63,271 nucleotides of DNA. Origin: a virus (taxonomy: Duplodnaviria > Heunggongvirae > Uroviricota > Caudoviricetes). The stretch lies in the IMG/VR virus record IMGVR_UViG_2939521961_000016, one strand, 5' to 3'. Of the stretch, positions 1 to 3,000 are shown piece by piece. A program made the position numbers. Numbering within the stretch: position 1 is the first letter of the stretch; each line of letters opens with the position of its first letter.

Positions 1-3000
1 ATGGACAACGACAAAATTGATCAACACAGCGACGAAATTGAAGTTGAGAGCGAAGAAAAAGAGCGCGGCAAAAAAATAGAAATAGATGAAGACCGACTCC
101 CCTCCCGGGCGATGGCAATTCATGAGCATATCCGCCAGGATGGTGAAAAAGAGCTGGAACGCGACGCAATGGCGCTACTGTGGTCAGCCATTGCGGCGGG
201 TCTGTCGATGGGCGCTTCGCTACTGGCAAAAGGGATATTTCATGTCGAACTGGAAGGAGTGCCAGGCAGCTTCTTACTGGAGAATCTCGGTTATACCTTT
301 GGTTTTATTATCGTCATTATGGCCCGCCAGCAATTATTTACCGAAAACACCGTGACTGCGGTACTACCCGTCATGCAAAAACCGACAATGAGCAACGTCG
401 GCTTACTTATGCGATTATGGGGCGTCGTGCTGCTGGGTAATATTCTCGGGACAGGTATTGCTGCATGGGCATTTGAATATATGCCTATCTTCAATGAAGA
501 AACTCGCGATGCATTTGTCAAAATCGGCATGGATGTGATGAAGAACACCCCCAGCGAGATGTTTGCCAACGCGATCATTTCCGGCTGGCTGATCGCCACT
601 ATGGTTTGGATGTTTCCTGCAGCGGGTGCGGCAAAGATTGTGGTGATTATTTTGATGACCTGGCTTATTGCACTGGGTGACACCACCCACATCGTTGTCG
701 GTTCTGTTGAAATCCTCTATCTGGTGTTTAACGGCACGCTGCACTGGAGCGATTTCATCTGGCCCTTCGCACTACCTACTTTAGCGGGGAACATCTGCGG
801 CGGCACCTTTATCTTCGCGTTAATGAGTCATGCACAGATTCGTAACGACATGAGCAACAAGCGTAAAGCAGAAGCACGCCAAAAAGCAGAACGTGCGGAA
901 AACATTAAGAAAAATGATAAAAACCCAGCATAAATGGCGAGGGTTTAAGCAATCGAGCGGCAGCGTACTTACCCCGCAGTCCATTAGCGGGTATACTCAT
1001 GCCGCATTGTCCTCTTAGTTAAATGGATATAATGAATATAAGTATTAAGTCATTGATTTAAATACAGAAAGTACCGAAATAATCGTCATATCAGTACCCA
1101 TTTATGTACACATCCCGTTAAACATGCCCCGCACTTCCGTACGGGGCATGTTCTTTACTCCACTCCCACTTTTTTGTTGTACTCGCGGTTAAACCGATCC
1201 ACGGCAATTTTCATATCCCGCTCTACCGATTTCACCATCGCCGACTGTTGCGCCAGACTGAGAGTACTGTCGGCGTAAATGGCATCACGCTGTTTACGCA
1301 AATCCTTCAGTCTCTTCCGGGTATCCTGCATAAGCCCGTTCATCGACAATTTTCCGTTGTTCTCGTCAATGAACGCCGTTCTTTCTGCACCGGTCAGACT
1401 CTTCAGCTCTGCGTGATACTGCGCGACCTCCGTCATCCGGTCGTACATCTTCTGCTGGTCAGCATACGGCATCACCTCACCTGAAATTTTCCCCAGGAAG
1501 GGCACCTGCTGTTCCGGTATATCAATACCATTCAGCGATTTCACCGCCGCATCCGTGGTTTTGGAAATGAAGCGCCCTGTCCCTCCGGAGATATAGTCAA
1601 TCCAGAATTTCAGCGATTCCGGTGTGATATCCACCGCGCCGGGACGATACTGGCTGCCACCTGAGAACGCATTCAGCCAGGATGCAAACGCCTTGTACGC
1701 TTCTGGCGTTGAACGTCTTCCCAGCTGGCTGTCAGGTTTTGGTGCACCAAACGGTATGTTCTCCTGGTAAATCTGCGCCCCCATGAAGTTTTCATTCATG
1801 GCAAGGTTCGCAAACGGACGCAGAATGGTCGGCGCTGCATTTTTCAGCAATGCCCCGGACAGTGTTTCCGACGTTTCACTGCCCACAGGACTGAATGCCC
1901 CAAGCACACCACCAACAACATTACCGGCAGCACGTGAAGCGGTCAGGTCGCCCGCTGCCACCCCTTCGGCTGTGTGACCAAGCAGGAAGAAAACGTTGTA
2001 CCCGTAAGGCAGAGGAATACTCCAGTACTCTCCGGCCTTGCCCCCGAACACCGATTTCATAATGACGAGGTTACGCTCTTTCACATGAGACGGCACCTTG
2101 TCATACCAGTTAACCCCGTCATCATCCTCCCCCGCCACGCTGCGGTTAAGCGAGCCAAGCAGATAACCCGCTCCCACAGCTGCAAGCGCGATTTTCTGCG
2201 GTACATTGAGATTCTTCCAGCGAAGGCGCTCCAGTAACGGCCCGTCGCCATTAAGATGTCCGAGCGTTCTCACCAGGTTTGCGGTCCCCTGAATGCTGGC
2301 GTTGGCGAACATGTACAGCGAGTTCATCAGCGCTCCCTGCTCACCACGACGGTTAAAGTTCACCGTCATGTTTTTGGCAAGGGACGCCGCCTGCTGGCGT
2401 GACAAACCGGCATCACGGGCGTGTTTATAGGCAGAAAGACGCAGAGCGTTTTCAACCGCCCCGTTGGCATCCTCGACAAGGTTAAGGAACGAATTCCATG
2501 CACCGATACTCTGGCCTTTCCATCCTCCCTTCGCCAGCGATACAAGGCGATCCATTTCCTTCTGCTGGCCTTCAAGATCACCCATGTTAAACCAGCCGGT
2601 TTTACCTCCGTCCTCAACAAACTCTTTCCACACCTTCTGCCACTGCGCACCGTTGCCCGTGAGGGTTTTACCACGCAGACTGGCGTATACGGCAGACATG
2701 GCAGACCGGCTGTCTTTCACCACAGCCAGTGCGGATAAGTTATCCAGCCCTTTCAGTTTGCCGTCGCTCCTTCCCTGCTCCGCCTTCAGGTTCATCACCG
2801 CCGTCTGCACGTCACGGATGAAGTTACTGACCAGGAATTCCGGGTTATACGACGTGTTCACCGTTGCCAGGAAGCGGTTAACTTTCCCCAGCGTGCGGAT
2901 TACGGCGTTACTGGTTTCCGGTCCCATATTCTTCATCGCACGCATCAGGCGCGGATCATGGAGTTTGATGTAGTACGTTTTGCCGTTCTTTTTGGTGGTG

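Follow-up and report, generated by a model that had tools for sequence, protein, structure and literature searches.

The yfdC–argW junction

The stretch of DNA analysed here (the window) is the 63,271-nt record IMGVR_UViG_2939521961_000016, and coordinates refer to the whole of it unless another sequence is named. It opens in the Escherichia coli chromosome with the host gene yfdC (1–933, plus strand), named from its sequence and from the annotation of matching genomes. A 24-nt fragment of the tRNA-Arg gene argW follows at 1009–1032 on the same strand, and the remainder is a Phi24B/933W-like prophage carrying Shiga toxin 2a (Stx2a) genes, with its tyrosine integrase gene (int) at the far end (62102–63271, minus strand). 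The region 1009–1152 is very probably the integrase-distal junction of a Phi24B-type Stx2a prophage that recombined with the 5' part of argW, leaving a dead stub of the gene beside yfdC and rebuilding the complete gene at the other end of the element.

The stub (GTCCTCTTAGTTAAATGGATATAA) is identical to nt 1–24 of argW as annotated in K-12/C600 and in JNEC-KY204, and the identity stops at position 25, which is C in the tRNA and T in the window. It is the displaced host copy of the 24-bp core of the attachment (att) site, and the published primer ‘Int F’ lies inside it. The 24-mer occurs once in the window, even with up to 3 mismatches allowed, and shuffled sequences gave an expectation of 0. 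No second copy of the core was found in the window, which stops at the start codon of int. ARAGORN called no tRNA at the stub, as expected of so short a piece, and Rfam returned only noise matches at high E-values for the stub region.

A query made of window 700–1500 matched all 5,426 complete E. coli genomes. Where argW is uninterrupted, the alignment breaks at query position 333/336, which is window 1032/1035, between features annotated as yfdC and tRNA-Arg. The complete yfdC–stub–phage junction is present in 209 genomes. Because the 24-mer is exact and unique, the alignments of uninterrupted genomes end at the same place, and the junction is shared by so many genomes, the argW junction is confirmed and is not a chance match.

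Between yfdC and the stub is a putative native argW promoter, TTACCC-N17-TATACT with a G+C-rich discriminator (969–997, plus strand), which was read from the sequence; a strict consensus promoter scan made no call at 969–997. The same sequence also precedes the intact argW of C600, and GCCGC follows it. This native promoter would remain with the 24-nt stub upon integration.

Phage DNA beyond the stub forms the integrase-distal arm of the attachment site of the phage (attP), called the P' arm (1033–1248). Its outer limit is the end of the smallest functional construct, attP427 (+240; PMC7581858). Window 1033–1152 is the intergenic portion of the arm, and by the published construct limits the functional attP reaches ~1248, inside the last phage gene (1155–9524, minus strand). 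This gene encodes a 2,789-aa protein with an LPD5 domain and has its 3' end within the minimal attP. The P' arm is contiguous with the other arm in free phage genomes. It holds a match (AATCAATGACTTA; 1046–1058, minus strand) to the integration host factor (IHF) consensus WATCAANNNNTTR, kept in both variants of the arm. A function for this match is doubtful, since the Phi24B integrase recombines in a himA mutant (PMC7581858). Two arm-type-like repeats, AGTACCCA and TGTACACA (1093–1112, plus strand), resemble the TGTAC(A/T/G)C repeats of the integrase-proximal arm and are also kept between the variants. The arm-like motif WGTACNCA is not enriched across the window (13 found, 9.7 expected).

A strong hairpin (1121–1152, minus strand; −30.5 kcal/mol, z = −7.1) stands directly past the stop codon of the 2,789-aa gene and is conserved in the comparison of P' arms. 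It is probably the terminator of that gene; a strict terminator scan did not call it, its T run being weak. If the orphaned argW promoter is active, transcription would pass through the stub into the P' arm and run antisense to the last part of the 2,789-aa gene, and the hairpin would be the only obvious barrier to such read-through.

The rebuilt argW gene and the phage attachment site

The sequence of the other end of the element was taken from NZ_AP045180.1, the closest genome, with 100% identity to the window over 60500–63271 and 99.4% over 700–1500. Its annotation gives the region as an Stx2a prophage between argW and yfdC. An intact, annotated tRNA-Arg begins 196 nt past the start of int (a 195-bp spacer), on the strand opposite int, and all 75 nt of this rebuilt argW are identical to the K-12 gene. 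Set side by side, the two junctions have exactly 24 bp in common. On the 5' side of the stub is host DNA as in C600, and on the 5' side of the intact argW is phage DNA. On the 3' side the stub runs into phage DNA, and the intact gene continues past nt 24 with the remainder of argW.

The attP predicted from these junctions (integrase-proximal arm, core, integrase-distal arm) is found as one contiguous sequence in vB_EcoS_P27, Lyz12581Vzw, Stx2-converting phage 86 and phi345. These free or packaged phage sequences match Phi24B at 99.8%. In the P27-type phages the base before the core is T, as it is in the host, which extends the identity to 25 bp.

The initial annotation of the window had taken the 24-mer for the 5' end of argW, followed at once by phage DNA and with the integrase at the far end of the element, and all of this holds. 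It had also placed the crossover in the 5' part of the tRNA gene and deduced that an intact gene would have to be rebuilt at the integrase-proximal junction, outside the window. The shared block of nt 1–24 agrees with the first of these points. The search beyond the integrase that it proposed found both the remaining part of argW and the 24-bp direct repeat in NZ_AP045180.1.

In the ARAGORN fold of argW, nt 1–7 form the 5' strand of the acceptor stem, nt 10–13 and 22–25 the D stem, and nt 14–21 the D loop. The core therefore spans the acceptor 5' strand, nt 8–9, the D-stem 5' strand, the D loop and three of the four nucleotides of the D-stem 3' strand. Because the identical block stops ahead of nt 25 and does not reach the anticodon arm, the crossover lies within the acceptor/D-arm region. 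Within it, a guess based on symmetry would make the D loop, flanked by the inverted halves of the D stem, the most likely overlap region.

The integrase and the Phi24B attachment sites

The integrase is a Phi24B-type protein of 389 aa with a TTG start codon, which is the end of the window. The gene begins 195 bp from the core and is transcribed away from the att site. The protein has the two-domain form of the heterobivalent (P4-like) tyrosine integrases, with an N-terminal arm-binding domain (Arm-DNA-bind_3, PF13356; 3.6e-17) and a C-terminal catalytic domain (Phage_integrase, PF00589; 1e-17) with the R-K-H-R-H-Y set. R237, K264, H326, R329, H352 and Y361 are invariant in 20 homologues and are the candidate catalytic residues, assigned by motif. 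Convergent with int is a 60-aa gene with an HTH_17 domain (61936–62118, plus strand), annotated as the excisionase Xis in P27 and AU6Stx1; the Xis of Phi24B is described in PMC3064807. The int–xis pair is found at 96–99% identity in 114 phage records.

The 5' end of int, the adjoining arm and the core are 99.8% identical to the Phi24B record HM208303, at the place where that record begins. Fogg and co-workers (2011; PMC3064807) reported that int of Phi24B is inverted relative to that of lambda, has its own promoter and a TTG start, and is accompanied by a separate excisionase. The gene in the window matches this in its start codon, its orientation and the convergent HTH_17 gene, and would likewise have a promoter of its own. 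Mohaisen and co-workers (2020; PMC7581858) defined a 24-bp central crossover site for Int-Phi24B, which acts independently of IHF, and set the minimal attP between 350 and 427 bp and the minimal bacterial attachment site (attB) between 62 and 93 bp; the integrase binding sites in attP and attB were listed as unknown. Nothing structural differs between that module and the element in the window, and recombination of attP with attB at this site would be catalysed by Int-Phi24B, as judged from the experiments in these two papers.

The published primers map base for base. Construct attP427 runs from −187 to +240, the inactive attP350 from −155 to +195, and ‘Int F’ falls inside the core, in the D arm of the tRNA. 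On the host side, attB110 (37 + 24 + 49 bp) maps to argW −37 to +73, essentially the whole tRNA gene, and attB125 to −37 to +88. The minimal 93-bp attB was described as a ‘49-bp B arm, 24-bp crossover, 20-bp B' arm’, and in the 62-bp site, which is inactive, the B arm is 18 bp long (PMC7581858). From the published arm lengths and the primer positions, the long arm of attB would correspond to argW nt 25–73, and cutting it to nt 25–42 would abolish recombination; the authors do not state this correspondence.

Prophages of the same type are known in Shiga toxin-producing E. coli (STEC), in whose genomics argW is routinely named as an insertion site for Stx phages (e.g. PMC9729726). The Stx2a prophages of O121:H19 strains (PMC9729726) and of GenBank LC645409 and related records occupy the same locus, argW–prophage–yfdC, and the same 24 bp are annotated in LC645409 and related records as a ‘duplication due to insertion’. 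The descriptions give the site by name, and the texts consulted do not say whether its 5' or its 3' end serves for insertion. The finding is thus already known in substance, since the att site of Phi24B, insertion at argW and the duplication in annotated records are all established. Added here to the Phi24B studies are the identity of the core with the first 24 nt of argW and so the link to a tRNA, the candidate arm sites and the question of the promoter. These additions – the link to the 5' end and D arm, conservation across the integrase clade, candidate arm sites and a promoter-swap hypothesis – are modest and would need transcript mapping for confirmation.

Conservation of the site among enterobacteria

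An alignment of 20 homologues served as the query in a scan for the integrase, each species being represented by one genome, and 80 loci were obtained. Twenty-four of these, from ~15 genera and with int at least 66% identical, all have a divergent tRNA-Arg(CCT) 173–196 bp upstream of int. The genera include Erwinia, Enterobacter, Pantoea, Phytobacter, Brenneria, Xenorhabdus, Providencia, Tatumella, Salmonella, Rosenbergiella, Morganella, Proteus and Rouxiella. Three loci in the same range of identity have no tRNA; two of them have only ~210 bp of upstream sequence, and the third (L017) has a full flank. Among relatives at most 64% identical (Gilliamella, Orbus, Vibrio, Photobacterium and others; loci L035, L037, L087 and L038–L090), no tRNA was found within 2.5 kb upstream. 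The acceptor stem of the junction tRNA stays paired across genera where its 5' strand varies (GCCCCCT/AGGGGGC, GTTCCCT/AGGGAAC), which is consistent with a tRNA that is kept functional.

A sister integrase, 56–57% identical, is present in 582 E. coli genomes (L039/L091), where it lies 181 bp from sbcB and divergent from it. The SbcB of lysogens begins MTDTDKQPTFLFHDYE (MTDTDKQP...) and that of naive strains MMNDGKQQSTFLFHDYE (MMNDGKQQS...). By this comparison the phage at sbcB has put its own sequence in place of the promoter, ribosome-binding site and first ~9 codons, with sbcB remaining full-length. Replacement of the 5' end of a gene is thus a trait of the wider integrase group.

A candidate promoter in the integrase-proximal arm

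The int–tRNA spacers of 23 of these loci were aligned with the one from E. coli, 24 sequences in total. Near int, three TGTAC(A/T/G)C repeats and a GGCAAGTGAAC block are invariant across the ~15 genera. These are candidate integrase arm sites, and TGTAC repeats 1 and 2 are missing from the inactive attP350. In the 124 nt next to the tRNA (−124 to −1), just 11 columns are at least 90% conserved – A −74, TTG −69 to −67, G −47, TA −45/−44, A −41, T −40 and AA −26/−25 – and the rest drifts. Eight of the 11 correspond to the TTG of a −35 element, the G of an extended −10, and T1, A2, A5 and T6 of a −10 element, all on the strand that reads toward the tRNA. All 24 spacers contain the pattern TTGnnn-N18-TAnnnT, and in 22 of them its end lies 39 nt from the tRNA. 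In E. coli it is TTGATT-N18-TATTAT (L001, 6899–6928), ending 39 nt upstream of the tRNA, and CAGTCATA follows the −10 box.

A strict promoter scan of the phage arm gave one 9-of-12 match per strand, no better than chance on a single sequence. For this reason the argument for a promoter rests on the footprint shared by the genera and on the analogy with sbcB. These suggest that the phage arm probably carries a sigma-70-like promoter aimed at the rebuilt argW. As the host promoter is followed by GCCGC and the phage box by CAGTCATA, an altered growth-rate or stringent control of argW, with an A+T-rich phage discriminator in place of a G+C-rich host one, is conceivable on purely inferential grounds.

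Comparison with other integration classes

In the classical 3'-end class of tRNA integration, the displaced fragment and the phage core come from the 3' part of the gene, whereas here both are nt 1–24. The arrangement agrees instead with the ‘5' tDNA fragment’ class of Islander (Hudson, Lau and Williams 2014; PMC4383910), in which a 5' fragment precedes the full tDNA, both oriented alike, and the integrase separates them: the stub is at 1009–1032 (plus strand), int at 62102–63271, and the full argW (plus strand) 196 nt beyond in the closest genome. Of 3,919 islands in that study, 159 have a 5' fragment and 3,760 a 3' fragment. The crossover sublocations it lists are the anticodon loop, the T loop and the T/acceptor junction, and the crossover in the acceptor/D-arm region is none of the three.

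The same tRNA gene is used differently by CPS-53. In K-12/C600, intS of this element lies 161 bp downstream of argW on the same strand, and the 3' 16-mer of argW, CTGCAGGGGACACCAT, recurs 11.5 kb away at the far end of CPS-53. IntS (CPS-53/KplE1) resembles the integrase in the window in its argW target, its Arm-DNA-bind_3 and catalytic domains, the position of the 5' end of int next to the att site, and the intact tRNA on the integrase-proximal side. The initial annotation had assumed that the usual 3'-end class leaves the intact tRNA integrase-distal; this premise is wrong, and an integrase-proximal intact tRNA is no oddity because the argW–intS case has it likewise. The two elements differ in that intS is downstream of argW, both on one strand, with a duplication of the 3' 16 nt, whereas int of the Phi24B type is upstream and divergent, duplicates the 5' 24 nt and displaces the host promoter. 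The unusual features of the window element are the divergence of tRNA and int, a displaced 5' fragment that keeps the host promoter, and the need for the phage to bring a promoter as well as the 5' part of the gene. One 75-bp argW gene can be flanked by two elements that use its opposite ends.

A second argW 16-mer, TTGCAGGTTCGATTCC (T-arm nt 46–61), recurs 11.2 kb away in the CPS-53 region of C600 (L093), immediately upstream of torI, and may have been left behind by a different attachment event.

The dusA-associated integrases (Farrugia 2015; PMC4482086) offer a parallel, in that the 5' end of the host gene is replaced and the element supplies putative −35 and −10 boxes. Their target is a protein-coding gene and the one here is argW; the likeness is a functional analogy.

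Mechanism and alternatives

In the proposed mechanism, the heterobivalent integrase recombined an attP of ~430 bp with an attB that is the argW gene itself. The part shared by the two sites is argW nt 1–24, so strand exchange took place somewhere within the 5' acceptor strand and the D arm. The host promoter and host nt 1–24 stay by yfdC as a dead stub that runs into phage DNA. The phage copy of nt 1–24 is joined to host nt 25–75, 195 bp from the start of int, so that the sequence of argW is unchanged. Comparison of the sequences establishes the junctions, the core, attP and the family of the integrase; the exact cleavage positions and a working phage promoter are presumed. The rebuilt gene is without its own promoter, and the phage TTGATT-N18-TATTAT would substitute for it. 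The resulting precursor would have a leader of ~30 nt for trimming by RNase P.

Several points weigh against this account. The integrase-proximal junction lies outside the window, and its structure here would follow from that of the closest genome and relatives. Strand exchange is placed only to within the 24-bp core, and its exact cleavage positions would fall somewhere inside it. The E. coli promoter matches at only 9 of 12 positions and its spacer is long (18 nt); chance would produce one or two matches of this quality in 500 bp. Recombination proteins might instead bind at the conserved columns, and TTGAT, read on the opposite strand, is an IHF-site core. The papers on the att site of Phi24B (PMC7581858, PMC3064807) make no mention of a tRNA – the words tRNA and argW occur 0 times in each – and hold no experiment on argW expression in lysogens.

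In a different account of the same junction, the phage arm has no working promoter and the rebuilt argW is silent or weak in lysogens. Decoding of AGG would then fall to argU and the phage tRNA-Arg(UCU), and the columns TTG...G.TA..AT would be bound by Int, by Xis or by a bending protein of the host. In its favour, a single sequence gives a poor promoter match, the entire arm is a recombination substrate whose positions keep a constant distance from the core, the ATCAA core of IHF sites reads TTGAT in reverse complement, and the prophage has its own tRNA-Arg(TCT). In addition, argW is presumably dispensable in K-12. Yet the conserved positions are those of sigma-70 contacts, at promoter spacing and on the correct strand, and the bases between them drift; the junction tRNA retains its acceptor-stem pairing across genera; and the sister clade at sbcB must supply a promoter and a start codon and has kept the reading frame intact. 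A silent argW, with the columns serving recombination, is on balance unlikely. The reading of both the P'-arm motif and TTGAT as IHF sites is kept only as part of this rival, IHF being dispensable to Int-Phi24B (PMC7581858).

Two further explanations concern the junction itself, and both are refuted. The stub could be a relic of a deletion or of illegitimate recombination that truncated argW with no site-specific integration. Nothing specific favours this beyond the fact that just one junction is visible in the window, and an identical junction in 209 genomes, an exact duplication of 24 bp together with the intact argW found at the opposite end, an attP that is contiguous in free phages, and recombination at the core in experiments (PMC7581858) make it scarcely conceivable. 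It is equally hard to credit ordinary 3'-end integration seen from the other side, with argW's 3' part carried by the phage and the window fragment being the start of the rebuilt gene. Most Islander islands (3,760 of 3,919; PMC4383910) belong to this class, and CPS-53 uses argW in just this way, with its 16-mer repeated 11.5 kb away. However, no argW sequence past nt 24 is present in the window, the arm on the integrase side is followed by nt 1–75 in the closest genome, and the core of attP is nt 1–24 only.

A bolder set of claims can be put forward tentatively, as a package. The Phi24B clade may be a dedicated replacer of gene 5' ends, in which a conserved sigma-70 promoter runs the host tRNA-Arg(CCU) in every lysogen across ~15 enterobacterial genera. 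A rare-codon tRNA would thereby be uncoupled from its native control, and the sister clade would also alter the N-terminus of SbcB. The long, asymmetric attB of Phi24B might be explained by a need for the tRNA body, nt 25–73, and the acceptor/D-arm crossover would be a fourth tRNA sublocation beside the three recognised.

Other genes of the prophage

The type of the prophage is marked by the genes for the A and B subunits of Stx2a (36150–37390, minus strand), identified from the sequence and from the annotation of the closest genome. A trio of tRNA genes – Ile2/Met(CAT), Arg(TCG) and Arg(TCT) – lies upstream of stx2 (37481–37732, minus strand; ARAGORN and RefSeq), and these are the only tRNAs that ARAGORN found in the window. 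The first of them is Met(CAT) according to ARAGORN and tRNA-Ile according to RefSeq. The prophage thus brings its own AGA/AGG-reading tRNA while occupying the host AGG tRNA gene.

A perfect 9-bp tandem repeat with nine copies (CAGTGCAGC; 61036–61116) lies within an open reading frame (60843–61259, plus strand) and encodes PVQ repeats. Related genomes align here in two pieces, and the gene is annotated as DUF1627 in some and as hypothetical in others, which suggests variation in the copy number of the repeat. Beside the repressor region of the closest genome (L005, 18292–18881; window ~44700–45400), a HicA/HicB toxin-antitoxin pair and a Panacea-domain gene are annotated.

Implications

The attachment chemistry of this junction is already characterised, so it does not represent a new kind of system. 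It does link two literatures that share no terms, the studies of the Phi24B attB and those of the argW insertion site of STEC. For the arm sites, left unlocated in the 2020 study (PMC7581858), the footprint conserved across genera offers concrete candidates. In pathogenic E. coli the junction marks one of the principal places on the chromosome where Stx2a phages reside, and the 24-nt stub diagnoses it correctly. For the biology of the host, the testable point is that lysogeny may place a rare-codon tRNA under a promoter supplied by the phage.

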